A DNA stretch of 64,000 nucleotides from Nitrospirota bacterium (lineage in GTDB: Bacteria > Nitrospirota > UBA9217): contig JAKAHZ010000001.1 of NCBI GenBank assembly GCA_021814615.1, forward strand, positions 31,178 to 95,177, read 5' to 3'. This document shows, one piece after another, positions 8,477-54,987 of this stretch. Numbering within the stretch: the first letter of the stretch is position 1; each line of letters starts with the position of its first letter. Made by a program: the position numbers and the translations under genes. The notes below the pieces were generated by a model. It was not told the DNA's origin, ran no database searches, and saw only the letters and a program-made list of their open reading frames with translations.

Positions 8477-8578
8477 TAAACCTATCACGGAGACAGGGAG
8501 ACCCAGAGAAAAGCAATTTGCATATATGATGATTTATTCAGTGTCCTCAGTGTCTCCGTGGTGATAATCGACTTTTCG
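8477..8578. repeat. ~95-nt hairpin element (copy 1 of 2); inverted repeat cacggagacag.../...ctcagtgtctccgtg
   Basis: Near-identical copy at 59603-59705; long imperfect stem flanking an ~60-nt AT-richer loop containing 'gcaatttgcatatatgatgat'. Confidence 0.7.
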
Positions 8579-11682: not shown

Positions 11683-12687
11683 TCAATGCTCCAGCGTGCC
11701 GACCATGGGGATCAGCCGCTGGTACTGCTCGTAGGGGATCTGGGAATGCCAGTGCCCCGTCGCTACGCCGATGCCGATGACGGCATAGAACAGCGCGACG
11801 AGCAGCACCGCGTACAGCACCGGCTTGAGCACCCGGACGGTCTTCCCGGCCTTCAGGGTGATGTCGAGTGCGCCTTCGGCGGGGCAGCGGCTCACGCAGG
11901 TCATGCAGCCGAAGCATTCCGCGGACGAAACGACCTCCTGCTTCTCCACGTCGATCAAGGTGGGACAGTGCTTGGTGCAGGCATGGCAATGCACGCACTT
12001 CGCGTCGTTCCGCCGCACCTTGACCGGGCTCAGTTTCGACAGGAGGCCCAGGAGCGCGCCGTAGGGACAGAGGTAGCGGCACCAGACATTCTTGTACAGG
12101 AGCGACAGACCGGCCAGGATGCCGATGACCCACATGCTCAAGCTGGACATGTCGGTGAAGAACTTGAGCATCTTCACGTCGGCGACCATGTAATAATCGC
12201 TCATGAAGAACATGACGATCATCGTCGTTCCCATGGCCACGACGATGACCCAGAAGAACGCCGACAGCAGGAGATACTTGATCGCCCGCAAGCCGATGTC
12301 GGTGTACCGCTCGACCCGGAAGTTCCTGCCGAAGATCTTCTCGCCTGCCATCCAGACGTACTGCGAGATCGTGCCGATGGGGCAGATCCAGCCGCAAAAG
12401 CCCTTCTTGAGCAGGAGCGAGACGCCGCAGATCGCGATGAACATGATAAGGCCCGAGGGGTGGAGCGGCTCCACCTGGAAGCTCGCCACAAAATACTTGA
12501 AGGCCATGAGTCCGCCGATGGGCAGGTAGGCGTCCACCGACGGCGGCCGTTCGACAAAGGGCTTGCCGGGCTGCTCGAAATGCTGCACAAAGTGATAGAA
12601 TTGCCATCCCGCGACGAGCGTGATCACCAGGAACAGCGCCTGGACGCCGTAGCGGAGATACCGGAGGGAAGTGCGTGGATAAGTCAT
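11683..12687 (-). CDS. NapH/MauN-type membrane-bound polyferredoxin (4Fe-4S binding protein)
   Basis: TM helices with 'FCGWICPIG' and 'CRYLCPYG' plus two ferredoxin CxxCxxCxxxCP motifs. Confidence 0.75.
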   Translation of the reverse strand: MTYPRTSLRYLRYGVQALFLVITLVAGWQFYHFVQHFEQPGKPFVERPPSVDAYLPIGGLMAFKYFVASFQVEPLHPSGLIMFIAICGVSLLLKKGFCGWICPIGTISQYVWMAGEKIFGRNFRVERYTDIGLRAIKYLLLSAFFWVIVVAMGTTMIVMFFMSDYYMVADVKMLKFFTDMSSLSMWVIGILAGLSLLYKNVWCRYLCPYGALLGLLSKLSPVKVRRNDAKCVHCHACTKHCPTLIDVEKQEVVSSAECFGCMTCVSRCPAEGALDITLKAGKTVRVLKPVLYAVLLVALFYAVIGIGVATGHWHSQIPYEQYQRLIPMVGTLEH

Positions 12688-20063: not shown

Positions 20064-20256
20064 ATCATTGGACACGGGTTTGCGCGGATCAGATCTGATG
20101 AAAGCTTCGATCTATTACTGATCTATCCGCTTTTATCAAAGCCTTATCCGCCTTGATCCGTGTCAAAAGTCTTTCGTCAATTCCTTTGAGCTCGGATTTA
20201 CACCGATAATATCTGGTGAAAGCCATAACGTCCAAGTGGGTGAAAGGAGCCTGACC

Positions 20257-20878: not shown

Positions 20879-21244
20879 CTACTGGCTGCCTGTCTTGAGC
20901 TTGATGACTTCCTTGGTCTTCAGATCCAAGGAATAATATTCATCCTTTTCGGTGGTGATAATAAGCTTCTCATTCTTTATCGTCAGATTCGTTATAAAAA
21001 CATCTTGAACGTCCTTCTCGAGCAACGGATTGATCCGCGCCTCATAGATCCTCTTTTCCCATAGTTTCTTTCCTGTAGTATTATCGAAGGCAACAACGTG
21101 CCCCATCTGCGACACAGGCGCCTCGTACCGTACGCCGCTATACACAACAGGATCAACATCTCGCGGCGCAGCACGTTTTGCCGAAGCGGGAAGAGCCGCA
21201 ATAAGAACGATGAGGATTGAAACTTTAAGTATTCTTGCGCTCAT
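20879..21244 (-). CDS. Small secreted hypothetical protein (low-GC insert)
   Basis: Signal peptide 'ILIVLIAALPASA'; local GC ~42% versus ~65% surroundings. Confidence 0.45.
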   Translation of the reverse strand: MSARILKVSILIVLIAALPASAKRAAPRDVDPVVYSGVRYEAPVSQMGHVVAFDNTTGKKLWEKRIYEARINPLLEKDVQDVFITNLTIKNEKLIITTEKDEYYSLDLKTKEVIKLKTGSQ

Positions 21245-21265
21245 GTTTTAGCATCCTGTCGGGTT

Positions 21266-21667
21266 TCACTTCGTTCTCCCCGACCTACGACCTGAGGTTA
21301 ATAGCGTTATTCTAGCTTTGCTCGAAACAATCCTTATCTTATTAGCGCAGGCTCTGTCATGGCCATAAAGTCTGAACGTATATTCATGAAATCGACGCCC
21401 GGAAACGATTACTTCTTTGTGTAGTATCCGATCAATTGAACCTGCCCAGAGATTGTCTTTGACCCCATTAAAATCGATCTGCTTGTTAACATTTTGCACA
21501 TTGTCAAATTCGGCTCTGACTTTTCTTCTCTTAGCACCCCAAACGAGACCGGGATATATTTCTGCTTCTATAGATATTTTTGTCTTATCTTTCTTCGTAA
21601 GTGGGTAAACATAGCTAACCCTAATGATATTACCATCGTGCCAATATGGCGTTGATATCAATTCCAT
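21266..21667 (-). CDS. Hypothetical protein (low-GC insert)
   Basis: ORF in AT-rich segment tandem with 20879-21244; start taken at MELISTPYW. Confidence 0.4.
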   Translation of the reverse strand: MELISTPYWHDGNIIRVSYVYPLTKKDKTKISIEAEIYPGLVWGAKRRKVRAEFDNVQNVNKQIDFNGVKDNLWAGSIDRILHKEVIVSGRRFHEYTFRLYGHDRACANKIRIVSSKARITLLTSGRRSGRTK

Positions 21668-21689
21668 GATCGCGAGCAGTCGCTCCCTT

Positions 21690-22751
21690 CTATTTTTTAC
21701 TTTCTTCCATCCTCTCCAGCAGCTTGAACTGCACCCGCGCCCGATGCAGGTTGTGGCCGGGGTAGCGGATGCGGAAATAGGTGTCCCCGCGGAGATAATC
21801 AGCAAGGAACCGGATGCCGAGCTCGAAGGTGATCACCTGGATGGAGAGCGGCAGCAGCTCGATCTCGCGCTTTGTCAGGAACGATCCGGCGGTTTCGAGA
21901 TATCCCGCTTTGATCGTTTCATACAATCCGGCGTCGAAGCGGACCGCGTCCAGATCCGGCGCATCCTCTCCTTCCGGATTGGCCGCCGACCGCACGCAGT
22001 CGCCGAAATCGAAATGCACGATCCCTGGCTTGACCGTGTCCAGGTCGACCATGCAGATCGCCTTGCCGGTTCCCTTGTGCACCATCACGTTGTTCACCTT
22101 GGGATCGTTGTGCACCACGCGCAGCGGGATTTCTCCGGTTGCGATGTGGTCGGTCAACGCTGTTGCCAGTGATCGGCGGCGGTAGACGAATTCGCGTTCC
22201 GCCATGATTTCGCGCGAACGGTTCTTCGGATCGGTTCGGAGCGCCTGGTCGAATTCGTCAAGATACCGGCCGGTGTAATGGAACCCGGGCAAGGTGTCGT
22301 GCAATTGGTCAGGATGGAGATCGGAAAGGAGTTCCTGGAAGGACCCCAGCGCCCGTCCGATCTCGAAGGCGTGTTGCTCTCCCTGCACCGTGTCGAAGAC
22401 CTCGCCGGATTCGATGAAATGGAACATGCGCCAGTAATCGCCCTTCCCGTCGACAAGATAGGTCTTGCCGTCCCTTGTCCGGAGCAAGGCAGGCGTTGTA
22501 TTCTCGGGATCGGGGATGCCCGCCCTGCGCAGCCGCTCCTGCACATGGGTGGTCACGGTCTCCACATTCGCCATCACCTGCTTGGGATGCAGGAACACGT
22601 GCTGATTGATCCGCTGGAGAATGTATTTCCTGACGCCGGCGTCGGACGCGATCTCGCAGAGATAGGTTTCGTTGATCAGGCCTGAGCCGAACCGCTCGGC
22701 GCGCTGGAGCGTGCCGGGAAGGGAGAAGTGCCTGATGATCCGCTCTTGCAT
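21690..22751 (-). CDS. Phosphotransferase (APH/choline-kinase fold; possibly sugar 1-kinase)
   Basis: Catalytic loop 'VVHNDPKVNNVM' (HxDxxxxN) and 'MVDLD' metal-binding motif. Confidence 0.6.
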   Translation of the reverse strand: MQERIIRHFSLPGTLQRAERFGSGLINETYLCEIASDAGVRKYILQRINQHVFLHPKQVMANVETVTTHVQERLRRAGIPDPENTTPALLRTRDGKTYLVDGKGDYWRMFHFIESGEVFDTVQGEQHAFEIGRALGSFQELLSDLHPDQLHDTLPGFHYTGRYLDEFDQALRTDPKNRSREIMAEREFVYRRRSLATALTDHIATGEIPLRVVHNDPKVNNVMVHKGTGKAICMVDLDTVKPGIVHFDFGDCVRSAANPEGEDAPDLDAVRFDAGLYETIKAGYLETAGSFLTKREIELLPLSIQVITFELGIRFLADYLRGDTYFRIRYPGHNLHRARVQFKLLERMEESKK

Positions 22752-23196
22752 GATGGGAGCATTGTACTGATTCGCGAGTGGATTAGCAAGGCGGGCGATG
22801 GGGCTTGAACCGCGAAGAAAATGAAGGAGCGGATCAACAGCCTCTTACCGCGAAGGCGCAAAGGACGCGAAGAACTGCAGGTCTTCCGCCGTTTTTTCCG
22901 GTTTTACTCGCGTTCATCCGTGTTCATCCGCGTCCTATTGCTTTCTTCTGACGTTTATTCCGGTTTTTATCCGTGTCCATCCGTGTGCGTCCGTGTCCAA
23001 ATGATTTTAGTTTTATCCGCTCTTATCCGCGTTCATCCGCGTCCAAACTAATGGGATCTGTGTTTCGGCTTTTGCGCTCTCTCTGTGCTCTCTGTGTCCT
23101 CTGTGGCAAATTCCGTAGTTGTTTGTTTTGATCCGCGTTCATCGGCGTCCCAAGCCGACTTTGAGTCCTCGCGTCTTCGTGGTAAAGGAGTTGGTT

Positions 23197-23375
23197 CCTC
23201 ACCTTTCTTGCGTGCCCAAGAAAGGTTGAGCCAAAGAAGGGCACCCGGCGATCATTCTGATCCGTCATGCTCGGTCGTCCTCAGGGCATTTCGGAAACTC
23301 GCCCTGCGGGCTTCGGACATCCGAAATGCTTTTCCTTCGGACTCTGTCGCCTGACGGGAATAATCGCATGGGAAC
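23197..23375. repeat. Copy 2 of ~150-170 bp structured intergenic repeat family
   Basis: Aligns with 30348-30520 and reverse complement of 5530-5702. Confidence 0.7.
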
Positions 23376-23593
23376 GGTAGTCAACGGCAAAGGCTCGTCG
23401 TTGGCTGGATTGATCCGCCGTTATCCGCATTCATCCGCGTCCAAAAATCTTCCTGTTTTTTCGTATCTCTGTTTTGTTTTCCCTCTGTGCTCTCTGTGTC
23501 CTCTGTGGCAAATTCCGTAGTTGTTTGTTTTGATCCGCGTTCATCCGCGGCCCAAGCCGACTTTGCGTCTTCGCGTCTTCGTGGCAACGTTCT

Positions 23594-24883
23594 TTACAAT
23601 CCCGTCGCCATGGTCTGGAAGAACGTGACGGCATCGACGGCAAAGGGCAGGGCGCAGTTGTCGTGCGTCGTGGGCTGCGAGCCTGCATTGCAGTTCACGA
23701 GCGTCACCGACGTCGATCCGTTGTTGGTCATGGCTGTCAAGGCAGTCGTTGCATTGGCATAGGGCACGATATCGTCCGCCTGCCCGTGGAAGAGCCGGGT
23801 GGGAACCTTGGGCGCCCAGTTGTAGATGTCGTTCCCAGCGACATGCGCTTTGAGCGCGGCCTCGCCCGAACCCAGGTAGCTCGACACGAATGCCGGGTTC
23901 AGCAGCGTCGTGGTCGCCACGCCCGGCCCGCCGAGGGCGCTGCTGATCTCGCTCCTCGTGTAGCTGCCGTTGAAGTAGGCATTGACCACAGCCGTGTAGG
24001 CGGAGGAAAAGTAGTAATCGATCGAGCTCGGGCTGTTGTACAGCGTGTCGTAGGCCTTGATAAAGAACGCGGTGAACGCGGGCTCCACCTGGCTCGGGAG
24101 CGCCACAACATAATGGGCCGTTCCCGTGAGATCGTAGGGCCCGTCGCCGGCCGCCGATGCGGTGATCGGGAATTCCGCGGACAGGCTTTGCTCCATCAGC
24201 TTCTGCGTGGCGATCGTCGCGTAGCCGCCTTCGGAATACCCGGTGAGAAAGAGCTGGCCGTTCGTGGAGGCGTTCACGGACGGATCGGCGAAGAAGGTCC
24301 GCGCCGCACGGTTCATGTCGACCGTGGCCGAGGCAAGCGTTGCCGCATGCAGGTAGGGATGGACCATGCCGAGGGAATCGCCGAATCCCAGGTAGTCGGG
24401 CAGCACGGTAATGAATCCCATGCCCGCAAGAGCAGCGCCGATCAGACCTTCGGAAGCGGTCACCGAGCTTGCCGAAAGTCGCGACGGCGCATCGCTGTCC
24501 TTGAAGATCGTGCCGTGCTGATAGCTGATCACCGGCCGGTTCGCGCTCCCGGGCGACGGCAGGCAGACCAGGCCCGAGGCGTTGACCAGCGCGCCCGAGG
24601 GATCGGGCGTCCCATAGGTGAGCCGGTAGCAGGCGGCCCCGTTCTTTGCCGTAATACCGGTGATGCCCAGGGCCGAGATGCCGAGGTTCAACAGATCAGC
24701 GCTGAAGGACGCTGCCGGGGACCAGGACATGAGCTGCCCGGCCGTTGCGGGCTGCGGCGGCGCGCTGCTCTTGGAATGCCCGCAGCTCATGAGCATCGAG
24801 GCCGCGAGGAGGGCGACAAGGATGCCTGCCGGACGGTTCGCCCGCCCAAAAGATCGATAGATTATTCCTGCTGTGAATTTCAT
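23594..24883 (-). CDS. Secreted lipase/esterase lipoprotein (alpha/beta hydrolase, LIP-like)
   Basis: Lipobox 'LMSCG'; nucleophile elbow 'GYSEGG'; Ser/Thr-rich linker. Confidence 0.65.
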   Translation of the reverse strand: MKFTAGIIYRSFGRANRPAGILVALLAASMLMSCGHSKSSAPPQPATAGQLMSWSPAASFSADLLNLGISALGITGITAKNGAACYRLTYGTPDPSGALVNASGLVCLPSPGSANRPVISYQHGTIFKDSDAPSRLSASSVTASEGLIGAALAGMGFITVLPDYLGFGDSLGMVHPYLHAATLASATVDMNRAARTFFADPSVNASTNGQLFLTGYSEGGYATIATQKLMEQSLSAEFPITASAAGDGPYDLTGTAHYVVALPSQVEPAFTAFFIKAYDTLYNSPSSIDYYFSSAYTAVVNAYFNGSYTRSEISSALGGPGVATTTLLNPAFVSSYLGSGEAALKAHVAGNDIYNWAPKVPTRLFHGQADDIVPYANATTALTAMTNNGSTSVTLVNCNAGSQPTTHDNCALPFAVDAVTFFQTMATGL

Positions 24884-25153: not shown

Positions 25154-26059
25154 CTATATGCCGAATTGCTTCGTTGCGACCCATTTCATGCTCAGGAGCG
25201 ACCAGAAATCCATTGCCATCCTGTTGAGAACATAGTCGTAAGGGAGCCATCCATAGCCGTTGTCGCCCCATGTCGTGCCCCAGGAATTGCGGATGAGCAA
25301 AGCTCCCGTGGCTTCCCTGTTACATTTCGTATTCCTGATCTTCTTGCTGTCATCGTAACCCACCGCGACGATGGCATGGCCCCATTGCGCCTGTTCTCCC
25401 GGGCACGGATAGGGAATGCCGCCCTTGACGTCGGTATTATTGAACGAAGGAAATCCCCAAAAACCGAACATGGACGGGACCCCCGCGGCAAGATACTGCT
25501 TGACCGACGCAAGCACCGTGGCGGGCGGCACGTTCGCAGCCTGTGGATCATGACAGAAATATCTGAGCGCTTCGTATGCATCCGCGATGGCGTACACAAA
25601 GGCAGTCGGTTCCTTGTCGAAATCAGGCACCGTATAGGGCCAGTATTTTTCTGCAGGGATGCCGCAGAGGCAGAGCGCGCCCATTACGTTTCTCAGCCAT
25701 GCCCCGGAATCGCCCGTCACTTTCATCAGGTTGCGGGTCGTCTTGTACAGGAACAGCCGGGAGCCGTCGATATACTGCCCGAAGGCCCTTCGTTCGAAAT
25801 ATTCCACGACCCCCATGCCCGCATGTGCCGAACAGGAACCGAGATTCAGCTGGTTCTCGATCGGGGAGCACCATTGCCTCAGATCGATGGTTGACGGCGC
25901 GGACAATGCCCGGCCGCCCAGACCGAGCCCTTTCGACAATTCCGCGATTACCGGGTGTTCCGCCGAATAGTCCCGCAGATCGGGCAGAGGCGGCAACCAC
26001 CCCGTTCCGACGACTTCTCCCGTGCCGGAAAGCTCCACTTTGCCGTAGAGGGAATACAT
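25154..26059 (-). CDS. Papain-like cysteine protease (C1 family)
   Basis: 'QLNLGSCSAHAG' (catalytic Cys), 'GHAIVAVGYDD' (His), 'NSWGTTWGDNGYGW' (Asn-Ser-Trp) triad context. Confidence 0.8.
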   Translation of the reverse strand: MYSLYGKVELSGTGEVVGTGWLPPLPDLRDYSAEHPVIAELSKGLGLGGRALSAPSTIDLRQWCSPIENQLNLGSCSAHAGMGVVEYFERRAFGQYIDGSRLFLYKTTRNLMKVTGDSGAWLRNVMGALCLCGIPAEKYWPYTVPDFDKEPTAFVYAIADAYEALRYFCHDPQAANVPPATVLASVKQYLAAGVPSMFGFWGFPSFNNTDVKGGIPYPCPGEQAQWGHAIVAVGYDDSKKIRNTKCNREATGALLIRNSWGTTWGDNGYGWLPYDYVLNRMAMDFWSLLSMKWVATKQFGI

Positions 26060-26096
26060 TTCACGTGCCTCCTTTCTTTGAGAAGCGGTTGGTCTC

Positions 26097-26435
26097 TTAG
26101 TCCATCAGCACCGTCGCCAGCGTCTGTCCCCTGTCCGTTCCCCGTTCGGCAGCGATCGCAAAAATATAAACGCCGGCTTTCCAGGTCTGCGTATTGATGG
26201 GAACGACATTGATGTGATAGAAGCCGGGCAGCCTTCCTGCCGTGACGCCGGTCATGTTTACCAGCGCTCCGCCGGGCCCGACGATCATGGGGTCCACCTT
26301 GAAGTTGGACATGCCGAGCCCCGTGACCGGTGCGCCGTTGACATCCGTTGCAGACACAATGATGTAGTTGGGTTGACGATTTCCCGGCGCCGCGATCGTG
26401 TCCTCAGAAAAAGCCGTCAGAACCAGTCGTGCCAT
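26097..26435 (-). CDS. Small hypothetical protein co-transcribed upstream of C1 protease
   Basis: RBS AGGAGG before ATG at 26435; 112 aa. Confidence 0.45.
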   Translation of the reverse strand: MARLVLTAFSEDTIAAPGNRQPNYIIVSATDVNGAPVTGLGMSNFKVDPMIVGPGGALVNMTGVTAGRLPGFYHINVVPINTQTWKAGVYIFAIAAERGTDRGQTLATVLMD

Positions 26436-26818
26436 AGTGACCTCCTTGTGTGAACTTGCCTCTTTCGGCTTCGCGGGCTGTGCCCGCGTTGTTGCCTGTT
26501 TCCGTGTGCAGGAAGCACGAAAGGAATGCCGATTACGCGATGGTGATCCATCGAAGGCGCGCCTCCTGTATCTCAGGAGGCTAAAGCTTATCACAGCGGG
26601 CAAGATTGAAAACTACTCGATCGGGTAGGAACGCGGAGTATTTTTCGGGGATGACCGAAGGTAGTAGGAAAAAAGAAACGGCAAATACGAGCTATCGCGA
26701 GATCAGGGGCATGAAAGGGAGGGCAAAAACCGGATGGTGATTATTCTTGTCCGTTCAATAACGAGACCGTTAAAAATCTCGATAACCGGCGGCGTTCATG
26801 GCGCCGGTGACCGGTTCC

Positions 26819-28309
26819 TTACTCAGCCGGTCCGGCCGCATCCACCTTGAAGAAGGCCATCGTGTTTCGGACCTGCATGGTCCGCGCGGAAAGCTGTTCG
26901 GAGGTCGCGGCCATCTCCTCGGCGATCCCGGCGTTCCGCTGGATCACCTGGTTCAGCTGCTGGATCGCCTCGCTCACCTGGCCCGTTCCCGCGGTCTGTT
27001 CGCGGTAGGCCGCGCTGATCTCCTGCACCAGTTCCGCCGTGCGCCGGATGTCCGGGATGAGCTTGCCGAGCAGGATCCCCGTCTGCTCCGCGACCTCGAC
27101 GCTGGACCGGGACAGGTTCGTGATCTCCTCGGACGCAATGCGGCTCCGCTCGGCGAGTTTCCGGACCTCGGCCGCCACGACCGAGAACCCCTTGCCGTGT
27201 TCGCCCGCGCGCGCAGCCTCGATCGCCGCATTCAGCGCCAGGAGGTTCGTCTGGCGGGCGATCTCCTCGACGATCGATATCTTTTCGGCGATCTCCTTCA
27301 TGGCGTCCACCGTGCGGGTGACGGCGGACCAGCTCGCGTTCGCGTCCTCCGACGACCTGGCGGCGATCGTCCCGATCTGGGCTGCGCTCTCCGCGTTCTG
27401 CCTGATCAGGGAAGTCATCTCCTCCATCGACGACGCCGCTTCCTGGATCGACGCCGCGTACCCTGCCGCGCCCTCGGAGACCTGCCGCGCGCCCGAGGAC
27501 AGCTCGGAGCTTCCGCGGGCCACATGGTCGGAAGCTTCCTTGACGTTCGCGACCACCTCCTGCAGGTTGCGGACCATGACCACCATCGCGGAGAACAGCT
27601 GACCGACCTCATCCTTCGATCCGGCCGTGACCGTCACAGTCAGGTCGCCGTTGCTTAGCGCGCCCAGCTTGGACCTGAGCGCGGACAGCCGCTGGAGACT
27701 CCTCCGGACCATGACGGTGACCGCCACGGCAACCGAGAAGATGCCCATGAGGCCCAGCATGATGTAAACGGTCTGCATCGCCCGTATCTTGGCCAGCGGC
27801 GCGGACAAGGGCACCGAAATGCTGATCGCGCCCAGGACCGTTCCGTTGGCAACATCGTGACAGCTGCCGAGACAGTTCTTGCCCATGAAATCGGCCGTCG
27901 CGGTGTAGGGATACACGCCCCGCATGCGGTCGCCGTCCACGACGACCCGTTCCCTGCCGGTTCCCAGGACCTCACGCTCCAGCGCGTCCTTAGCGTAGTC
28001 CTCCGCCGGCCCCCTGCCGTACTGCCGGTCGAGCACCTCGGCGCGCACGATCCGCACGTCGGCGATATGGGTCATCTGCTCCAGGAACGGCCGTTCGGAT
28101 TCCCGATAGCCGCCCGCGATCATCATGGTCGTCAGGGCGTTCTGCATCGTGTCCCGGTAGGCCGGAAGCGTGGAATTCCGCACCTCCTCCATGAGCATGC
28201 GCCGCGTGTTGATCGTGGTGACGAAGACGCTGATGATGATGCCCAGGATGACGAAAAGGATGATCGGGATTGCGATCTTCCAGCGCAAGGACAGGTCCTT
28301 CAACGGCAT
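26819..28309 (-). CDS. Methyl-accepting chemotaxis protein with periplasmic sensor domain bearing CX3CH motif
   Basis: Two TMs, HAMP, MCP signalling domain; periplasmic '[10 protein letters not shown]'; RBS GGGAGG. Confidence 0.8.
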
Positions 28310-28545
28310 TGCGGTTCCTCCCGGGCAGAACGGATTCGGGGCATATTAACTGAATAAGGATTTTGGGACAAGCCAATAAAAACCAGGCTGGCCTTCTCCC
28401 GGTTATTTTCCCGCGAGAGCGGAAGGAACACTGCCCCATCGGCAGATACCCATGTGAAACGTACGAAGTAAAGCACGACGCTGCAGGCTGAATGAGCCGG
28501 CATGTTTTGCCGTTTTCCGATCCTGCCCATCTCGGCTCTGGTCGC

Positions 28546-29100
28546 ATGCCTCCGCAGGTTTTCGTTGAATTCGGCCGGGTTCTATGCGAATATGCAGCTG
28601 TGAACGGGAAACGGGAAATCGTCGCTGCAGTCATCCTCATCGCGCTCGCAGCGGTCAGCTTTGCGCGCGATGCGGTCTACTCCGATCCGATCCGGCTCTA
28701 CACCGATGTGGTTGCAAAATCCCCCGACAAAGCCCGTCCCCATAACAACCTCGGCCATTACCTGAAGATCGCCGGCCGCCAGGCCGAGGCGCAGGCCCAA
28801 TTCGAGAGGGCGCTCGCCCTGATGCCGGAATATCCCGACGCGCTGAACAACCTCGCAACGATCTACACCAACATCGGCCGGCGGCAGGAGGGCATCGCCC
28901 TGCTCCAGAACTGCCTCCTCCTGAACCCGGCGCATATCCAGGCGCGGTACAACCTTGCCATGCAGTTCTATGAAGGGGGATTTCTGCCCGAGGCGGAGCG
29001 GGAATACTGGAACATCATCAAGATCGCGCCGCAGAGCGGCGAGGCCGCCTTTGCGCAGCGAATGATTCAGATGATCCAGAGCGGGAAAAGGATGCAGTGA
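28546..29100 (+). CDS. TPR-repeat protein
   Basis: Repeated 'AxxxLGxxxxxxGxxxEAxxxFxxAL' TPR units; start uncertain (ATG 28546 or GTG ~28603). Confidence 0.55.
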   Translation: MPPQVFVEFGRVLCEYAAVNGKREIVAAVILIALAAVSFARDAVYSDPIRLYTDVVAKSPDKARPHNNLGHYLKIAGRQAEAQAQFERALALMPEYPDALNNLATIYTNIGRRQEGIALLQNCLLLNPAHIQARYNLAMQFYEGGFLPEAEREYWNIIKIAPQSGEAAFAQRMIQMIQSGKRMQ

Positions 29101-29559
29101 AATCAGAGATGAGTAAGAGCAATAAAAGGCTTGTCTCGCGCAGAGCCGCGGAGACCGCAGAGAACGGCTAGAACCAGAGACGAGAGTCAAAAGATTCTGT
29201 TTAGCTACTATTTATCCGTGCCCTCCATGTTGATCCGTGTCCAATCTTTAATCCGAATTTATCCGCGTTCATCCGCGTCCCAATAGTACTTCTTCGAGTC
29301 TTAGCGTCTTCGCGGCAAAATCTTTTCCTCTCGCAGAGACGCAGAGGAGCAGCGAAAAGCTAAGGATTGGCTCTTGCAAAGACGCAAAGGCGCGAAGAAA
29401 AGCAGCGGCTAAATCCGGGACGACGATCTAAAGACCTCATCCGTGTTCATCTGTGTTGATCCGTGTCCGATCTCTAATCCGAATTTATCCGCGTTCATCC
29501 GCGTCCCACTGGCTCTTCTTCGCGTCTTTTGGTGTCTTTGTGGCAAAGGTTTTTGATTC

Positions 29560-30261
29560 TCACTCAAAATAATTGAACTTCACGATGGCCCAGAGGGCCG
29601 AGAACCCGTCCTTCCACCCGATCTTCTTTCCTTCTTTATAGGACCGCCCGCCGTAGGAGATGCCGATCTCATAGAGCCGGTACCGCCCCCGGGCAACACG
29701 CGCCGTGATCTCGGGTTCGATGGCGAATCTATTCGAGACGAGCTTGGGCGCGATTTCCTGCAGCGCCTTCTTCGTGAACATCTTGTAACACGTTTCCATG
29801 TCGGTAAGATAGAGGTTCGTGAAGGCGTTGGAAAAGGCGGTGAGGAACTTGTTCCCGAGATAGTGCCAGAACCGCAGAACCGCGTGCGGCCTGCCGCTCA
29901 TGAACCGCGACCCGTAGACCACTTCGGCCTTGCCGTCCAGGATCGGCTTGAGCAGGTCGGAAAACTCAGCCGGATCGTATTCCATGTCGGCGTCCTGGAT
30001 CACGATATAGTCGCCTGTCGCCGCCGCAAACCCCGTCCGTACCGCAGCGCCCTTCCCGCGGTTTTTCTCGTGAAAGATGACGCGGAGCGGCGGCTGGAGC
30101 TTGGCGAGATACTCCCGCGTGCCGTCCCGGGACCCGTCGTCCACCAGGATGATCTCCTTCTCGATGCCCGCCGGCAGCGGCGCATCGACCACGCGTTTCA
30201 GGCTCTGTTCGATGGTGCGGATCTCGTTGTACACCGGCATGACGACGGTCAGAACGGCCAT
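29560..30261 (-). CDS. Glycosyltransferase family 2 (polyprenyl-phosphate sugar synthase-like)
   Basis: 'VVMPVYNE', 'LVDDGSRDGT', 'IQDADMEYDP' GT-A DxD motifs. Confidence 0.8.
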   Translation of the reverse strand: MAVLTVVMPVYNEIRTIEQSLKRVVDAPLPAGIEKEIILVDDGSRDGTREYLAKLQPPLRVIFHEKNRGKGAAVRTGFAAATGDYIVIQDADMEYDPAEFSDLLKPILDGKAEVVYGSRFMSGRPHAVLRFWHYLGNKFLTAFSNAFTNLYLTDMETCYKMFTKKALQEIAPKLVSNRFAIEPEITARVARGRYRLYEIGISYGGRSYKEGKKIGWKDGFSALWAIVKFNYFE

Positions 30262-30347
30262 GGGATCTCCTTATATTGGTCTTCCGACTTTCGCGTGGGG
30301 GAGTATCTTGAGATTGTTATGCTGTTACCAGTCCTCAGACGACCCTC

Positions 30348-30520
30348 CGGCCACCTTTCTTGCTTGCCCGAAGAAAGGTGGCGCCCAAGAAGAACACCCC
30401 GCGACTATTCTGTTCCGTCTTGCTCTGTCGTCCTCGGTACATTATAGAAACTCGCCCTGCGGGCCCAGACAGTCTGAAATGTTTCACCCGCGGACTCGGT
30501 CGCATGACGGGAATGTTCGC
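30348..30520. repeat. Copy 3 of ~150-170 bp structured intergenic repeat family
   Basis: Reverse-complement match to 5530-5702. Confidence 0.7.
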
Positions 30521-30672
30521 AGGGGGGGCAGGCAAAACCTTAATAACTGTTACTCAGCATGTTCCCGGAACGTTTTCTACGCGCCTTTGCGTCGCTGCGA
30601 CAAAACAAGCTTTGCTTGTCTAGCTGTTCTCCGCGCCCTCTGCGGCTCTGCGGGAACATGCCCTGGCATTGC

Positions 30673-31260
30673 CTATTTCCAGCGCGGAATATTATACAGC
30701 TTCGTGCAGATCGCGTCGAACTGAATTTCCTCGCTCCGCAGGCGGTCCCGGTATCGCTCGATGTCGCCGTCCCGGCCCTGGAGCTCCGGCGAAACGAGGC
30801 AGAGTTTGAACCCCGCGTCCTTGAGCGTGCGGAAGGCAGCCTTGTCGATCGGGAGCTTCGTAAAGCAGTCCACCCAGACCCAGTCCACTCTTCCCCTGAG
30901 CGCCAGCACCGTGTCCAGCCCCTCATACTCCGAATAGCGGACCGCGATGTTTCGCTCTCCCTGCGACGAGAGCAGCATCATCATGGGAAAGGATGAGTCG
31001 AGGAAGAAGTAATCGCGCACGCCGGCTCGCCGGATCAGCTCCAGCACGCGATGCTCGATCCGTTCGCTCTTGATGTTCAGGATGAGCGTGCCGTGGCGAT
31101 ACCCTGCGAGGTATTCCTCGAAGTCTTCGCCGTCGGTGAACGGGTCGTGCTGCAGGATCAGCCGATCCCCCCGGTCGCGAAGATCAAGCTCCACGCCGTA
31201 TTCCACGGGTACCTTGGCCAGCTCGTCTTTCCTGTTGATGCGGTGGGCGATGAACTTCAT
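30673..31260 (-). CDS. Glycerophosphodiester phosphodiesterase-like (GDPD/PI-PLC superfamily) short protein
   Basis: 'FIAHRINRKDEL...VELDLRDRGDRLILQHD' resembles GDPD His/Glu/Asp catalytic motifs; ATGA overlap with upstream GT2. Confidence 0.4.
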   Translation of the reverse strand: MKFIAHRINRKDELAKVPVEYGVELDLRDRGDRLILQHDPFTDGEDFEEYLAGYRHGTLILNIKSERIEHRVLELIRRAGVRDYFFLDSSFPMMMLLSSQGERNIAVRYSEYEGLDTVLALRGRVDWVWVDCFTKLPIDKAAFRTLKDAGFKLCLVSPELQGRDGDIERYRDRLRSEEIQFDAICTKLYNIPRWK

Positions 31261-31961
31261 GACGACAACCCCTTCTTGAGCCGCACGCTGAAATCGAGCG
31301 TGCGCTTGATGAACTTCCATTTCGACCGGAGGCCCGTGTTCCAGCTCGACGCGCCGTGGATGCGCGGCGGAAACCGCACCGGGAACCGGACGATCTCGAA
31401 TCCCCGCTTCCGCGCGAGGTAGAGCGCGTAGAGATCGAGGGAAAAATCGTCGGGCGGGTTCGTCCAGCTCTCGAGGAACCGGCGCGGAAAGAGGTTCGGC
31501 TGGGCATTGATGTCCCAGAGCCGCTGCCCGAGGTACAGCGTCTCGAACAAGCTCATCCCCACGGTGAACACCTGGTCGAAGAGCGGCCGTCCCCGGCGGC
31601 TGCCCTTGACCAGAATGGCCCCCGGATTGCCGCGACGCTCGATAATCTCCAGCGCGCGCAGCGCATCGGAGGGGTCGGTCTGCAGGTCGGCGTGGGTCCA
31701 TCCCGCGTACTCGCCGCGGGCCGCCGCCAGTCCCTGCCGGATCCCGTAGCCGTATCCGCGGTTCACCGGCACGAGCACGGTGCGCGCGAAGGGATAGCCC
31801 GGCAGCAACTCGTCCAGCACCTTCTGGCTGCCGTCCCGCGATCCATTGTTGACCAGGATCGCCTCGACATCGGGCCGGGTGATCGCCGCCTTCAGCCGCT
31901 CCAGGATCAGCGGGATGTTTTTCGCTTCATCGTAGCAGGGGATGACGAGCGAGAGTTTCAT
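31257..31961 (-). CDS. Glycosyltransferase family 2
   Basis: 'LVIPCYDE', 'VNNGSRDGS' GT-A motifs; 4-bp overlaps on both sides. Confidence 0.75.
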   Translation of the reverse strand: MKLSLVIPCYDEAKNIPLILERLKAAITRPDVEAILVNNGSRDGSQKVLDELLPGYPFARTVLVPVNRGYGYGIRQGLAAARGEYAGWTHADLQTDPSDALRALEIIERRGNPGAILVKGSRRGRPLFDQVFTVGMSLFETLYLGQRLWDINAQPNLFPRRFLESWTNPPDDFSLDLYALYLARKRGFEIVRFPVRFPPRIHGASSWNTGLRSKWKFIKRTLDFSVRLKKGLSS

Positions 31962-33589
31962 GGCTTCTTCCGGTCCCGGTGTTCGTACACGGTCAGATAG
32001 AAGCCGTTCGATCCGTTCTTCGTCTTGTTGCTGAAATCGAGTTCCGTCTCCGACGGCGCCTCGCGCAGGCCCGTGGATTCGAAGCCATCCTCCGCGAGGA
32101 TCGACGCGATCTGCTGCGGGAGCGGCCCCCGGTGGCTCACGAAGACGATTGCCCCGTCGTGAGGAATGCGGCCGATCAGTTCCCGCTGCAACGACGGAGC
32201 GTAGTAATTGAAGTTCGTCACCACATTGTAGTTCCGCATGACCGACGGCATCAGTAGGAGGTTCATGGTCCAGTCGTACTCGATCGCCAGCGCTTTTTTA
32301 TGCGCGGCAAGCACGGAGACGATCTCGCGCTCGTCGAAGGGATCCCGGCGCGACGCGAAGACTCCCGGCGCCGACGCAAGGAAGAGGAGCGCCATGACCG
32401 CGGCAAGGCCGGGTGCAGACCAGGCGCGGAGCCGCGCGGCGATCCCTTCCCGCCTCACCTTGCCGATGAGATACGAAAGCCCCTCGCCGATGCCGATGGC
32501 GAAGAGCGGGAGCAGGATCAGCGTATGACGCGTGGGCCCGAAGGAAAGCCGCCGCATCACGATGAGGACCGCCCAGGTGAGGGCGGTCACGCCGGCGAAG
32601 AGGCCGAGCATCCGCCGATGGCGGTCCTTGGTATCGATGCAGCTCGCCGCACCGGCGATAAAGAGCGCCAGGAGCAGGTATTCCAGAGGCGCGGCGAGGG
32701 GATGGCCCGCCGGAAGCAAAGCCACCGTGTTCCGGAAAACGGCGATACCGTTCTCCCCGAAGAACCGGACCGAGTACCACGCCGCTTCGAGGATCCCGGA
32801 AGGCAGCGAGAAGGCATACTCGCCGTTCACGCCCCCGTTCCAGCTGATATAGGCCGCCTTCTGCGGCACGGTCCTGATGAAGAAATAGTAGAGCGGCGCA
32901 ATGAAGAGAAGCACGACCGCGAGGGTAACGGCAAGGTTCGCTGCGGCATCTCGCATAGCCTCCCGCGATCCGCCCCGGCTCACAAAAAGCGCAATGAAGA
33001 CGCCCGGCAGAAAGAACAGGATCTGGTACTGGGCCGTGCAGAGCACACCCAGGCCCAGGCCCAGGAGCAGCATTCGCGGATAGGTCCAGGCGCCGGGCTT
33101 CAGCATTCCCTGGAGCAGGAGCAATACGGCAACAGCAGCCGGAATGCCGATCGCGTAACTCGACATCTGCTTCGCATAGATGATGTTCTCCCAGGAGAAA
33201 GCGGCTACGGCGACGGCAAGGAGCATCGACGGGAAACCTTCGCTCCCCCGGAAGCGCCAGTACCAGACGGCCAGCAGCGCGAGCCCGAGAGCGCCGGCAA
33301 GGAAAGACGGAAACCGTCCCCACCAGAGCACATCACGGTACGGCTGGTCGGAAGAGATGAGCAGCGCCGTGAGAAGGTACTGGAGCGGCGCATAGGTCGT
33401 CCTGTTCGCCACCGCATAAACCTTGTCAAGATATCCCGCTTCGCGCGGCCCGTCCTGGGCGTTGTTGATCGCCACCGCCACGTTCAGATCGTCGATATGG
33501 CTGAAGTGCGATCCCAGGCCGGCAAGACGGACGGCGATTCCCAGGAACAGCAGGCAGCACAACGCGATGATCCAGGTTCGTTTATTCAT
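31958..33589 (-). CDS. GT-C fold membrane glycosyltransferase (ArnT/PMT-like, family 39/83)
   Basis: Multi-TM with first-loop 'SHIDDLNV' acidic motif and large loops typical of polyprenyl-P-sugar-dependent GT-C enzymes. Confidence 0.65.
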   Translation of the reverse strand: MNKRTWIIALCCLLFLGIAVRLAGLGSHFSHIDDLNVAVAINNAQDGPREAGYLDKVYAVANRTTYAPLQYLLTALLISSDQPYRDVLWWGRFPSFLAGALGLALLAVWYWRFRGSEGFPSMLLAVAVAAFSWENIIYAKQMSSYAIGIPAAVAVLLLLQGMLKPGAWTYPRMLLLGLGLGVLCTAQYQILFFLPGVFIALFVSRGGSREAMRDAAANLAVTLAVVLLFIAPLYYFFIRTVPQKAAYISWNGGVNGEYAFSLPSGILEAAWYSVRFFGENGIAVFRNTVALLPAGHPLAAPLEYLLLALFIAGAASCIDTKDRHRRMLGLFAGVTALTWAVLIVMRRLSFGPTRHTLILLPLFAIGIGEGLSYLIGKVRREGIAARLRAWSAPGLAAVMALLFLASAPGVFASRRDPFDEREIVSVLAAHKKALAIEYDWTMNLLLMPSVMRNYNVVTNFNYYAPSLQRELIGRIPHDGAIVFVSHRGPLPQQIASILAEDGFESTGLREAPSETELDFSNKTKNGSNGFYLTVYEHRDRKKP

Positions 33590-33974: not shown

Positions 33975-34287
33975 GGTAAAATCACCTTTGCCGCGAGGGC
34001 ACGAAGACACAAAGGAACGGCAGACAACCAAGATGCTATGACCTCAAAAAACGCTGCGCTTGAACTCGCCTTCCCCATGCGGAAAGGATTTTCGCGGGGT
34101 GCCCTTCTTTGGGTCACCTCTTCGTGTCATTGCGACTCGTGATAAACAGCATTTATATGATGAACTCGTAAAAAGGCTTTCGCCACAGAGGTCACCGAGG
34201 ACACAGAGAAAAATATCTTGTTTTATGAAGCATTATCTCTGTGATCTCTGTGTGCTCTGTGGCAGATTTTGACTTTCTACGATTCTG

Positions 34288-35934
34288 TCATATATGCTTC
34301 TGGCAGAACTCCCGGTACTTCCTGTCGAGCTGTCCTACCCTCTCCGGATTCATGGTCACGTCCTTGTCCAGGCGATAGGGATGCCAGGCGCATTTATGAA
34401 AGAAACTCTGCCAGTACTCGTAGGTCCGGAGGTCGTTCGGCGTTCCCCAGCACAGGTAGCTGTCCACCGGGAAGACCTTGACCCGGAGCCCCATGCCGAT
34501 AAGCTCGTTCACCGTGCTGTCCACGTAGAACTCGTTGTTCACCCGCACGTTCCTGTCCGTCATGCGCCGGAGCGCCTCGGTGAAATGCCGAACCTTCCGG
34601 AACCAGAAAGTGCCCACGATCGCGTGATCGTTGTAGGGGTCCATCGAGACGGGCACCTTGACCGAAACGGCTTGCACGTCGTTTTCCCCCGTCGTCCTGA
34701 GCCAGCCGTACATGTGCGGATTCCGCTCAGCCGACGGATGCCTGCGGAAGCTCCAGACCACGGCATCGACCGCAGGGGCCTCCACGAGCCTGCGAAAGGC
34801 CTCACCGTCCCAAAGCATGCCGTTATCGCAGGCGCCGATCAGGAGCTCCGCCTCGGGATCGGCCTTCCGGAGGCCGATGGCGCAGGTGACAGCCTGGCCT
34901 TCCGTCACCGCATCGAGGCGCACCACGTTGGCCTCGGGATAGGCCGCGCGGATCGCCTGCTCCAGCGGATAGGCGCGGGCATGCTCGTCCAGGCAGACGA
35001 AGGTCTGCCGCTCCGCCTTCGGGAGATAGGCCGCGGCCTGCACGATCATGGGCTTCCCGCTCACTTCGATCAGGGGCTTGGGAACGGTGTAGCCCTCTCT
35101 GCGGAACCGCTCCCCTTTGCCTGCCAGCGGGATCAGCAGGATGCTGTTCCTTCGCGCGGCACCGTCGGGCAGCGGCCCGATGATCCTGCGGAAGTAGTCG
35201 GACCAGGCCTGGTACTCCTCCAGATCGCGCGGCGTGCCCCACTGGAGCATGTGCTGGATCTCGTAGATCGAGACCGTAAGTTTGTCGGCAACGAGCAGGT
35301 TATAGACCATGCTCACGTAGTACTCGCCCTTCACGTGAATGTCGGCGTCCATGAGCTTCCGGAAATACTTTTTCACCAGGTCGCCGCGCCGGAAATAGTA
35401 GGTCCCGTCGGAGGCGTACTCCTGCGTCCGGTCCTTGGTGAAGGGCTCCTTCTCGCGGATCTCGAGCATCCACTGTTCGCGATCGCGCATGAAGGCGTAG
35501 TTCGTGCTGCCGAGCATGTGGGGATGGAAGCCTTTATACGCCGGGATCGCGCCGTCGGCCTTCCGGCCCCGCGTGTGGCGAAGGAAACCGGCGTAGTCCC
35601 AGTACTTGGCGAAGTCGCAGTAGTTGACGATCACTTCCTCGTCGTCGGCGATGCGGTCGAAGATCCGGGCCACCGCGTAGACCGGCCCCTTCTTGTGCGG
35701 CGCGATCTCGACGATCTCGCCCGCCGGCGCGGCGCGCAGCAGGATCTCGCGCATCTTCGTGGTCCGCAGGTGGTCGCTGTTGCAGATGAAGGTGAACTTC
35801 GTCTCGCCGGGAAAGAGCGCGATCACGCGCTCGATGATCGTCTTGCCGTCCGCCTCGATCAACGGCTTGGGCAGCGTGTACCCCGCGTCAAGGAAGCGCT
35901 TGCCCGTGCCGGACATGGGAATGATGATGTGCAT
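34288..35934 (-). CDS. Tandem double nucleotidyltransferase (two NTP_transferase/GT-A-like domains)
   Basis: Two G-x-G-x-R-F loops 'IIPMSGTGKRF' and 'LIPLAGKGERF' ~270 aa apart. Confidence 0.6.
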   Translation of the reverse strand: MHIIIPMSGTGKRFLDAGYTLPKPLIEADGKTIIERVIALFPGETKFTFICNSDHLRTTKMREILLRAAPAGEIVEIAPHKKGPVYAVARIFDRIADDEEVIVNYCDFAKYWDYAGFLRHTRGRKADGAIPAYKGFHPHMLGSTNYAFMRDREQWMLEIREKEPFTKDRTQEYASDGTYYFRRGDLVKKYFRKLMDADIHVKGEYYVSMVYNLLVADKLTVSIYEIQHMLQWGTPRDLEEYQAWSDYFRRIIGPLPDGAARRNSILLIPLAGKGERFRREGYTVPKPLIEVSGKPMIVQAAAYLPKAERQTFVCLDEHARAYPLEQAIRAAYPEANVVRLDAVTEGQAVTCAIGLRKADPEAELLIGACDNGMLWDGEAFRRLVEAPAVDAVVWSFRRHPSAERNPHMYGWLRTTGENDVQAVSVKVPVSMDPYNDHAIVGTFWFRKVRHFTEALRRMTDRNVRVNNEFYVDSTVNELIGMGLRVKVFPVDSYLCWGTPNDLRTYEYWQSFFHKCAWHPYRLDKDVTMNPERVGQLDRKYREFCQKHI

Positions 35935-54982: not shown

Positions 54983-54987
54983 GATTG

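Follow-up and report, generated by a model that had tools for sequence, protein, structure and literature searches.

What is the 842-nt spacer at positions 22752-23593 made of, and what, if anything, does it do? The question is raised by a 64,000-nt stretch of DNA from a Nitrospirota bacterium (contig JAKAHZ010000001.1; the whole stretch is referred to here as the window), in which this spacer separates the stop codon of a LIP-family hydrolase gene from the start codon of an APH-family kinase gene. An earlier note on the same DNA had described nearly every long gap between genes as built from short reiterated words, sometimes duplicated as larger units, and had placed a shared motif, YTYTGYGGCAR, immediately upstream of open reading frames (ORFs), where it might mark regulatory sites or recombination-prone low-complexity DNA. 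Spacer 22752-23593 is the largest local pile-up of this short intergenic repeat family, whose members adjoin the stop codons of genes and carry a defined polarity with respect to transcription.

The unit of the family is a module of ~25-36 nt, made up of a foot (GCCAC, GGAC, ACCAC or CCGC) and about three tandem words of 8-10 nt. On the purine-rich strand the order is a T-run, the foot, about three words, each consisting of a 7-nt core and a variable spacer of 1-3 nt, and an A-run, as in TTTGCCACAGAG GA CACAGAG AG CACAGAG GGAAAA. YTYTGYGGCAR is the final word and foot of such a module in the opposite-strand reading. Most words of this genome (CACAGAG, CACGAAG, CGCAAAG, CRCGGAT) match the degenerate word CRCRRAK, with same-strand spacings of 8, 9 or 10 nt, the GTAC words of hairpin H7 being excepted. 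Curated by hand, 57 modules account for 1,784 nt, or 21% of the spacer DNA (Table 1).

These words are concentrated in spacers far above chance, and the signature of short reiterated words and duplicated units that the earlier note described was borne out: every interval that it had listed contains at least one module. When k-mers were compared between spacer and coding DNA of the window, the 8,321 nt of spacer contained 19 copies of CACAGAG/CTCTGTG and the 55,756 nt of coding DNA a single one, so that the density differs 85-fold; for ACACGGA, CGGATAA, CACGAAG and CGCAAAG the density in spacers exceeds that in coding DNA 5-25 times. For CRCRRAK the spacers yield 115 occurrences where an order-2 Markov null predicts 26.3 ± 4.8, and YTYTGYGGCAR has seven matches in the window, all on the + strand, where 0.57 are expected. 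Tandem-word arrays, defined by at least 3 copies, a period of 7-11 and a self-identity of 78% or more, reach 18 in the spacers, a density of 2.16 per kb, whereas coding DNA has 4 (0.07 per kb), a ~30-fold difference; resampling gave 1.6 ± 1.1 arrays in spacers (maximum 5 over 200 resamplings), ~11 times fewer than observed. The duplicated units are likewise real, 23070-23185 matching 23472-23587 (family D7; 116 nt, 92% identity) and 29228-29302 matching 29454-29528 (family D10; 75 nt, 91% identity). That nearly every long gap is so built was too strong a statement: modules are present in 19 of the 36 spacers of at least 40 nt, and divergent spacers are mostly without them. The repeats are not a CRISPR array, as the note had also said, which is ruled out by irregular spacing (10, 53, 10, 36, 10, 398 ...), degenerate units and no cas genes in the window.

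Where the modules sit reverses the placement near gene starts. The ends in ...TGTGGCAA adjoin the stop codons of minus-strand genes: five of the seven YTYTGYGGCAR matches are within 50 nt of such a stop (stops 29560, 34288, 46154 and 47176), and a related foot at 23578-23587 is 6 nt from the hydrolase stop at 23594. Among spacers of at least 40 nt, modules occupy 16/24 that are co-directional, 2/6 convergent and 1/6 divergent. In the 16 co-directional spacers that bear modules, these are separated from the upstream stop by a median of 11 nt and from the next start by a median of 52.5 nt; the nearer end is the stop codon in 13 of the 16 (p = 0.02). Of 20 modules that come first after a stop, 18 are purine-rich when read in the direction of that gene, as are 15 of the 16 that lie no more than 50 nt away. 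Promoter-like hexamers follow the arrays (22789-22761, 47073-47045, 54111-54139), and the suggestion of regulatory sites near gene starts found no support in these positions. Since module orientation flips with gene orientation at ~51.7 kb while GC skew is monotonic across the window, orientation follows transcription, and an orientation set by replication is ruled out. A sigma-54 or sigma-70 promoter reading of ...TGTGGCAA was also rejected, as inspection by eye gave no consistent -12/-10 partner and the sites lie at gene 3' ends.

Single modules consist of tandem direct words without self-complementarity, and folding is brought about only by pairs of modules. About a dozen spacers have a purine-rich module (R) with a pyrimidine-rich module (Y) of complementary words 15-60 nt behind it. 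Such R-Y pairs are predicted to fold into long imperfect stem-loops, each with a stem of 25-35 bp and moderate G+C, made up of 7-9-bp helices interrupted by small internal loops, and closed by a loop of 15-60 nt. Against dinucleotide shuffles the better-folding strand scored z -2.7 to -7.6 for 10/11 folded candidates, the eleventh (33985-34150, 166 nt) reaching only -2.1. Adjacent inverted pairs in the window are R-Y in 13 cases and Y-R in 2; because the order is identical on both strands of a hairpin, R-then-Y is a true property of the element. Neither strand is consistently favoured in the folds of the window (sense more stable in six hairpins, antisense in three), and in metagenomes the 'opposite' strand was more stable in 20/22 hairpins listed, a set biased by selection on an exact 20-mer.

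Within the target spacer, 12 modules cover 361 of the 842 nt. The gene-sense order is hydrolase stop, 6 nt, C2, A6, B2, A5, foldback, C1, A4, B1, A3, A2, A1, followed by two pyrimidine-rich modules (22845-22874, 22812-22837), a promoter-like site and the kinase start codon; the ten named modules are all purine-rich when read in this sense. The two A-B-A-C composites align over 176 nt at 84% identity (BLAST, 23012-23182 vs 23410-23584). Module 22845-22874 is predicted to pair with C1 or C2, 300-700 nt upstream in mRNA sense, and the terminal pyrimidine-rich modules could pair with the first purine-rich ones across ~700 nt. As sense RNA the spacer is rich in A (31%) and G (27%) and folds modestly (z -2.75), mostly owing to the foldback insert; it contains 35 GGA and 15 CGGAU, against 13 and 1 on the other strand.

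The foldback forms one long imperfect hairpin in which nine base pairs are preserved through two-sided changes, with further copies at 30345-30525 (+), 5537-5703 (-) and, in part, 34075-34126 (-), ~80-85% identical. Rfam gave no match for 22700-23650, which includes the foldback, at E <= 10, and none for the whole window at gathering score. The foldback is a separate repeat family and looks like a miniature inverted-repeat transposable element (MITE) or a structured RNA. Taken with the 12 modules and the 176-nt duplication, this foreign insertion suggests that the target spacer is a degenerate accumulation and not a designed device, and it would need no function beyond separating the hydrolase transcript from the kinase promoter.

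The sequence of the spacer is real, as independent assemblies agree on it, and an assembly artefact is ruled out. The 429-aa LIP-family protein recurs unchanged on DAIEQF010000058.1 (64,463 nt; metagenome-assembled genome (MAG) GCA_027348025.1), in a further NCBI MAG and among ENA and Logan assemblies. The identity of these assemblies to the window is 99.95-100%, and the target spacer, within which several short-read contigs terminate, does not vary in length among them. One 1-nt indel separates the window from the NCBI contig copy L008, somewhere in about 25155-33589, as judged from a coordinate offset and one BLAST gap.

Three processes let the family spread and grow: the number of words in an array changes, composite units are duplicated locally, and copies are dispersed. 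Unit 8478-8576 (H1) is 92% identical to unit 59603-59700 (H9), and 34160-34290 (H3) corresponds to 45999-46130 (H5), with 26/30 and 27/30 identical positions in the arms and ~50% identity in the loop; the flanks are also better kept than the loop. H5 is not in the corresponding spacer of relatives L010-L012. No target-site duplication was recognisable at the four ends of these two dispersed pairs, for which there was no empty site for comparison. In the two closest relatives, a heptamer-word hairpin (TGCGGAA x4 ... ATCCGMA x2-4; L011 13029-13099, L010 9306-9364) lies in frame inside thiL, in a variable linker, adding 6 residues relative to the ThiL of the window and having a different number of words in L010 than in L011. 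The description as recombination-prone low-complexity DNA thus holds for slippage-type copy-number change and duplications, and misses the feet, the inverted pairing, the purine-first polarity and the words common to several phyla.

The Lon protein of the window is 86-88% identical to that of MAGs labelled Nitrospiraceae, Nitrospiria or Nitrospirota and ~70% identical to that of Thermodesulfovibrionia. Downstream of lon, an array or hairpin begins 6-20 nt past the stop in the window and in L010, L011, L013 and L016, built of unrelated words. The same architecture with other words recurs in L047 (Acidobacteriota), L079 (Nitrospinota), L080 (Anaerolineae), L052 (Desulfohalobiaceae) and L035 ('delta proteobacterium'), the taxon names of these and of L034 being record labels; in L035, as in the window, TTCATCCGC-type modules lie between the two halves of an outer CGCAGAG...CTCTGCG pair. 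In L034 (labelled Pseudobdellovibrionaceae; 12418-12580), also on the downstream side of lon, the word hairpin GAATGAG x3 ... CTCATTC x3 comes directly after a canonical terminator, GGCCTCGGGC...GCCCGGGGCCTTTTTTT, and because the two are adjacent there, canonical terminator and word hairpin can coexist in series.

Identical words also reach well beyond these relatives. The exact 20-mer ATCCGCGTTCATCCGCGTCC, present in three copies in the window, was found in at least 120 metagenome stretches of G+C 0.40-0.72 with unrelated flanks. Of 71 contexts among the matches listed, 21 have complementary purine-rich words on the upstream side and 1 has them on the downstream side. In the same listed matches the foot points towards the 3' end of a gene in 41 cases and towards a 5' end in 19, at a median of 41 nt, 3/48 contexts are between divergent genes, as are 0/16 hairpins with both neighbours called, and hairpins in convergent gaps are 5-35 nt from both stops. 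The loops of the L138 and L141 hairpins contain a textbook bidirectional terminator (A-tract/GC-stem/T-tract). Eight contigs of G+C 0.61-0.69 (L099, L112, L132, L137, L142, L147, L151, L153) carry an A-type module inside a recurrent ~125-nt unit with inverted ends GAGTTCATCGGAAAT...ATTTCCGATGAAGTC (TTCATCGGAAAT ends), a MITE-like module carrier. An exact 26-mer of module B1, CTCTGTGCTCTCTGTGTCCTCTGTGG, occurs inside an R-Y hairpin on the megaplasmid of Pseudoalteromonas shioyasakiensis A316, and whole CACAGAGGA-type hairpins are found in Bacteroides finegoldii records and on Gemmatirosa kalamazoonensis plasmids, where they are nested and begin 5 nt past a stop codon. The A-type hairpin had no match among PLSDB plasmids. 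On the megaplasmid (CP076682.1; L213 1150-1660), ~240-nt tandem units without an annotated feature lie upstream of an EAL-domain gene, each holding a CACAGAGGA-type R-Y hairpin.

Tentatively, we propose that the word hairpins are 3'-end repeats that act on the transcript, comparable to repetitive extragenic palindromic (REP) sequences and bacterial interspersed mosaic elements (BIMEs), as putative bidirectional terminators and/or protectors of mRNA 3' ends. Bidirectional intrinsic terminators have this purine-first, pyrimidine-last polarity, and the weakest hybrids are those of the r(pyrimidine):d(purine) type. The purine-rich arm would leave the polymerase first, and the pyrimidine-rich arm, only weakly hybridised to its own template as r(pyrimidine):d(purine), would then pair back onto it, by the same logic as in an A-tract/U-tract bidirectional terminator, here extended along the whole stem. 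RNA polymerase would be stopped or paused from either direction, and/or the transcript would end in a 3' stem-loop that blocks exonucleases. Tandem words would permit several pairing registers and make the arms slippage-prone, and slippage together with inverted copying could account for array growth and turnover. A link to termination is suggested by the terminators in the L138 and L141 loops, by the promoter-like hexamers after arrays and by the canonical terminators of the window, which a scan of its 20-60 kb portion found at chance level (20 vs 18.1; 17 vs 16.3), while the conserved position of an array after the lon stop, with its words replaced, points to a 3'-end role.

Several observations weigh against this proposal. 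The terminator scans show most hairpins without a U-tract abutting the stem, and no terminator-like site in them matches a whole word hairpin. The 2-nt spacers between word cores are non-complementary in the window hairpins and the changes between paralogous hairpin copies are not compensatory, so pairing is not tightly selected in the window. Many modules, including 10/12 in the target spacer, are single or co-oriented and, having no inverted partner nearby, cannot fold locally. Purifying selection against promoter disruption would give any neutral repeat a 3'-end bias too. The close relative L012 has essentially no word arrays, and none downstream of lon; together with the in-frame hairpin in thiL, this near absence fits dispensable, selfish DNA. 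Finally, exact 20-26-mers common to several phyla suggest sequence-specific recognition, and a pure structure model leaves this sharing unexplained.

Selfish or neutral repeat DNA without host function is the main alternative, and a rather unlikely one. Slippage would make the words, fold-back or template-switch copying the inverted arm, and a putative transposase or recombination would disperse the units, of which copies would survive only where they are harmless, behind stop codons. Presence or absence and word turnover among close relatives agree with this, as do the differing word number in frame within thiL of L010 and L011, the near-identical dispersed copies, nested arrangements and pile-ups, the uncompensated arm mismatches in the window and the A-type module carried in a MITE-like unit with TTCATCGGAAAT inverted ends in eight high-GC contigs; the multicopy sequences of G. 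bemidjiensis are also non-randomly clustered, with one family inside genes (PMC2996986). Neutrality does not predict the strand polarity of single modules relative to the upstream gene (18/20 purine-first). The greater conservation of arms than loops and the position retained behind lon despite word replacement also speak against it, and the window contains no transposase or REP-associated tyrosine transposase (RAYT) gene and no target-site duplication at its two dispersed pairs.

Under a bolder and improbable reading, the shared words CGCGGATGAA, CACAGAGGA and CACGGAGA (together CRCRGAK) would be a cross-phylum 3'-end code, written as tandem copies close behind stop codons with the purine strand leading, and read by a conserved single-strand binder that sets termination, read-through or mRNA decay. 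At hundreds of gene ends such a binder, a cold-shock-domain protein or another putative factor, would switch the hairpin between open and closed forms, and the 20-26-mers would persist by recognition, not by recent transfer, in Nitrospirota, Nitrospinota, Desulfobacterota, Gemmatimonadota, Bacteroidota and Gammaproteobacteria.

Recognition could also act on the duplex. BIMEs bind integration host factor (IHF) and gyrase, and the arrays may be double-stranded sites for a nucleoid-associated or global regulator of the IHF/HU type, with paired arrays bending or looping DNA at gene boundaries, a model that we regard as quite improbable. Word periods of 9-10 nt are near the helical repeat, exact words are common to several phyla, and IHF/HU recognition was proposed in the main text of a Geobacter metallireducens genome paper for paired sites with fixed-distance insertion sequences (PMC2700814), the class 2 word of which, TCTCCGTS[Y], occurs in the window at 8537-8563 and 59660-59687. 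That proposal is itself speculative as worded there (PMC2700814). At least six word variants in 64 kb, and unrelated words in the same architecture elsewhere, disfavour a single sequence-specific protein; word periods spread over 7-11 nt and arm distances that vary are easier to reconcile with a flexible single strand than with a duplex in phase, and the polarity tracks the transcription direction of the upstream gene.

The same features that suit a flexible single strand would allow arrays in RNA to be bound by a single-strand binder, either cold-shock-domain antiterminators on the pyrimidine-rich arm or a CsrA-type protein titrated by CGGAU words, in which case the 842-nt hydrolase 3' region would be a CsrB-like sponge; we give this little credence. 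The 7-10-nt words, flexible spacing and transcription-linked polarity fit such binders, and so do the 35 GGA and 15 CGGAU of the target spacer in mRNA sense, against 13 and 1, with a weak fold outside the foldback. The C-type words (GTCTTTG, GTCTTCG) resemble the heptamer GTCTTTG/T, the preferred site of Bacillus subtilis CspB. Csp and Csr proteins have been proposed to bind TAACTGA repeats (PMC4679880). Only 10 GGA motifs match A-N-GGA, however, most word types are without GGA, the purine arm is paired to its complement in most loci, which would hide the sites, and Shine-Dalgarno-like tetramers (GGAG/GAGG/AGGA) are not enriched beyond composition (47 vs 45.4 ± 8.0).

Promoter-proximal sites from which a global transcription factor would control the genes that follow, as the earlier note had suggested, are hardly credible. 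In their favour, the word pattern is not random, and a direct-repeat period of 8-11 nt is usual in response-regulator sites. Against them, the arrays adjoin stops and not starts, five of six divergent window spacers are empty, as few as 3/48 metagenome contexts among the matches listed are divergent, and promoter-like hexamers lie downstream of the arrays.

Other readings of the words were tried and rejected. The arrays are not stop-free in every frame (50 and 30 stop trinucleotides in the two orientations), the tetramer count given above speaks against Shine-Dalgarno-like arrays that would hold ribosomes after termination, and a DnaA-box reading of TTATCCGCG fails by eye at 2-3 critical positions relative to TTATCCACA. 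The RNA-polymerase pause motif G-10 Y-1 G+1 in pyrimidine-rich words suits 8- and 10-nt units and not 9-nt units; it is weakened by single modules, which mostly show the other strand to the transcript, and stays speculative.

REP, BIME and REP doublets forming hairpins (REPINs) of Enterobacteria and Pseudomonas comprise hundreds of short, hairpin-forming intergenic repeats, often in inverted pairs or clusters, mainly behind genes or within operons, and REP/BIME have been associated with stabilised mRNA 3' ends, in some cases with termination, and with the binding of IHF or gyrase. The window modules are likewise extragenic, multicopy, 3'-end-biased, present in inverted pairs and clusters, and dispersed. 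The REP unit, ~20-40 nt long, is itself an imperfect palindrome, whereas these modules are non-palindromic tandem words, and whereas REP has a conserved 5' GTAG-like tetranucleotide and RAYT mobilisation, the feet here are GCCAC, GGAC or ACCAC with no GTAG, and no Y1 transposase/RAYT is found among the Pfam matches of the 56 window genes. With bidirectional intrinsic terminators the hairpins share a stem-loop directly behind stops, the filling of convergent gaps, and a purine 5'/pyrimidine 3' polarity on both strands; no site with the features of a canonical intrinsic terminator (a 5-20-bp G+C-rich stem, a 3-8-nt loop and a U-tract within 0-2 nt) coincided with a whole word hairpin in the scans.

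Rickettsia palindromic elements can sit in frame inside genes, and Neisseria Correia elements (NEMIS) are co-transcribed and affect mRNA processing. The window repeats resemble both as small palindromic repeats that spread through a genome, the thiL hairpin of L010 and L011 being in frame, but those elements are single 100-150-bp families with defined ends and, for Correia, target duplications, and are not built of tandem words. Of the marks of a MITE (terminal inverted repeats, a flanking target-site duplication and dispersed copies with conserved ends), the window shows inverted arms and copies at separate sites (8478-8576 vs 59603-59700; 34160-34290 vs 45999-46130), and the four copy ends have no recognisable target duplication.

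A close likeness is with the 'predicted global regulator binding sites' of G. metallireducens, which are described in the main text of Aklujkar et al. 2009 (PMC2700814) as three classes with 3-5 tandem 7-9-nt repeats per site (GTTGCTYN x4, TCTCCGTS[Y] x3, MTYCTGA x5), mostly paired on opposite strands at variable distance and present in many spacers, with IHF/HU recognition offered as a guess and insertion sequences placed at a fixed distance from them. The window in turn has arrays of at least three copies with period 7-11 (18 in spacers) and ~13 adjacent R-Y pairs with gaps of 15-60 nt, and the class 2 unit, alone among the class units as given in that main text, is matched by a window word, GTCTCCGTGG (8537-8563, 59660-59687). 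The Geobacter sites concern one genus and an annotation note, and the main text mentions no polarity rule, stop-codon association or cross-phylum word sharing (PMC2700814). G. bemidjiensis has similar multicopy intergenic sequences, non-randomly clustered, one family being inserted in genes (PMC2996986).

TAACTGA repeats, common to Beggiatoaceae, Cyanobacteria and Bacteroidetes, lie just upstream of start codons in forward orientation, with only one indirect repeat reported (MacGregor 2015, PMC4679880); heptamer and other 5-11-nt repeats are reviewed in the same paper, with Mrazek 2007 as cited there for long simple sequence repeats. The window repeats share with these and with cyanobacterial short tandemly repeated repetitive (STRR) heptamers short spacer-concentrated tandem words, a sporadic distribution and the same word in distant phyla. 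Most window arrays, however, have only ~3 imperfect copies, at the short end of the range for STRR and long simple sequence repeats, and unlike TAACTGA repeats they lie just downstream of stop codons and are commonly inverted-paired. A literature search on the word strings returned only unrelated primer sequences. The kind of repeat is thus already known, and the polarity rule, the stop-codon association and the cross-phylum identical words are, as far as could be checked, apparently undescribed.

Table 1. Genes, modules, hairpins and related features, in coordinates of the window.
Feature	Position	Strand	Description
LIP-family hydrolase gene	23594-24883	-	429-aa product; stop codon at 23594
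Module C2	23562-23587	-	TTGCCACGAAGACGCGAAGACGCAAA on - strand; first module after the hydrolase stop (23594), 6 nt off; purine-rich in mRNA sense
Module A6	23530-23555	-	GGAT-type, two words, TTGGGCCGCGGATGAACGCGGATCAA on - strand
Module B2	23481-23512	-	CACAGAG-type x3, foot TTTGCCAC; + strand reading terminates in the CTCTGTGGCAA of the earlier note
Module A5	23410-23447	-	GGAT-type, three words, foot TTTTTGGAC
Inserted foldback repeat	23190-23400	+	~180-210 nt; long imperfect hairpin; separate from the word family
Module C1	23163-23186	-	TTTACCACGAAGACGCGAGGACTC on - strand
Module A4	23128-23153	-	GGAT-type, two words
Module B1	23077-23110	-	CACAGAG-type x3, foot TTTGCCAC
Module A3	23012-23047	-	contains 20-mer ATCCGCGTTCATCCGCGTCC
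Composite unit A-B-A-C, copy 1	23012-23186		copy 2 is 23410-23587; the copies flank the foldback repeat
Module A2	22966-23001	-	ATCCGTG words, period 10
Module A1	22909-22935	-	TTCATCCGTG / TTCATCCGCG
Sole clear opposite-orientation module	22845-22874	+	TTACCGCGAAGGCGCAAAGGACGCGAAGAA; pyrimidine-rich in mRNA sense
Weak GGAT-type module, opposite orientation	22812-22837	+	pairs with A6 in centroid fold of whole spacer
Promoter-like TTGCTA-17-TACAAT	22761-22789	-	between last module and kinase start codon (22751); consensus match only
APH-family kinase gene	21690-22751	-	start codon at 22751
Hairpin H1	8486-8563		within unit 8478-8576, copy of 59603-59700; word GTCTCCGTGG
Hairpin H2	20068-20168		GGAT-type R-Y; 4 nt past stop codon; z -5.6 / -4.5
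Nine modules	29135-29547		fill convergent TPR/GT2 spacer; order R,Y,Y,Y,R,R,Y,Y,Y; duplicated A-A-C composite unit
Hairpin H3	34178-34266		GCCACAGAG GT CACCGAG GA CACAGAG ... CTCTGTG AT CTCTGTG TG CTCTGTGGC; z -5.0 / -7.6
Hairpin H4	43387-43448		follows purine-rich array downstream of lon (whole locus 43387-43514)
Array downstream of lon	43471-43514		purine-rich in mRNA sense; begins at lon stop codon
lon	43515-45929	-	compared by protein identity
Hairpin H5	46017-46103		between NTP-transferase gene and lon; H3 is a dispersed copy; z -5.6 / -6.3
Hairpin H6	47091-47165		10 nt past MlaD stop codon; then promoter-like site 47073-47045 (-)
Hairpin H7	50199-50325		(GTACAGAG-type) x4 ... (TTGGTAC) x9.3
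Hairpin H8	54036-54186		CACGAAG-type, plus one further module 54154-54186
R,R,R...Y modules	58462-58735	+	three purine-rich, then one pyrimidine-rich; syntax equals that of the target spacer
Hairpin H9 modules	59613-59687		within unit 59603-59700

Gene calls and Pfam matches give the window its 56 genes, many with anaerobe-type functions; tRNA and tmRNA were looked for in the window and none is present. The (TTGGTAC) x9.3 array of H7 (50263-50327) is a pure heptamer array. Modules 48624-48662 and 50191-50229 are 87% complementary over 39 nt, 1.5 kb apart, and bracket mlaE and mlaF in Y...R order on the mRNA; they could form a long-range duplex or a split hairpin. A further heptamer array, AAGTTCA x4.1 (52886-52914), lies 5 nt past the gpsA stop and overlaps the called ATG (52883) of a TPR gene; the true start of that gene may lie further downstream, and the array may be a spacer-type module.

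Two regions stand apart from the word family. The small GIY-YIG ORF at 55036-55323 is flanked by ~40-nt repeat copies (TGTCATTGCGAGGAGCG...CGACGAAGCAATCTCGTAGTT) at 54987-55031, 55322-55359 and 55400-55444, direct at the left, inverted immediately to the right and then direct, with arms 100% complementary, and together they look like a small mobile cassette. At 20879-21805, G+C falls to 0.42-0.49 against 0.61 overall, over a 121-aa ORF without a Pfam match and a 445-nt module-free spacer; this stretch may be foreign or decaying DNA.

If the word hairpins do end or protect transcripts, this would explain the scarcity of canonical terminators in the window and possibly in other GC-rich environmental lineages, and annotators would gain a marker for the ends of transcription units. 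The grammar is defined (a foot, about three words, the purine arm first, a start ~10-50 nt past the stop) and is testable in cultured carriers, and an annotation curiosity of the 2009 Geobacter genome becomes a defined, widespread class. There is also a practical side, in that short-read assemblies break at these repeats. If they are only selfish DNA, they would still be unusually clear repeat families that grow by slippage and inverted copying.

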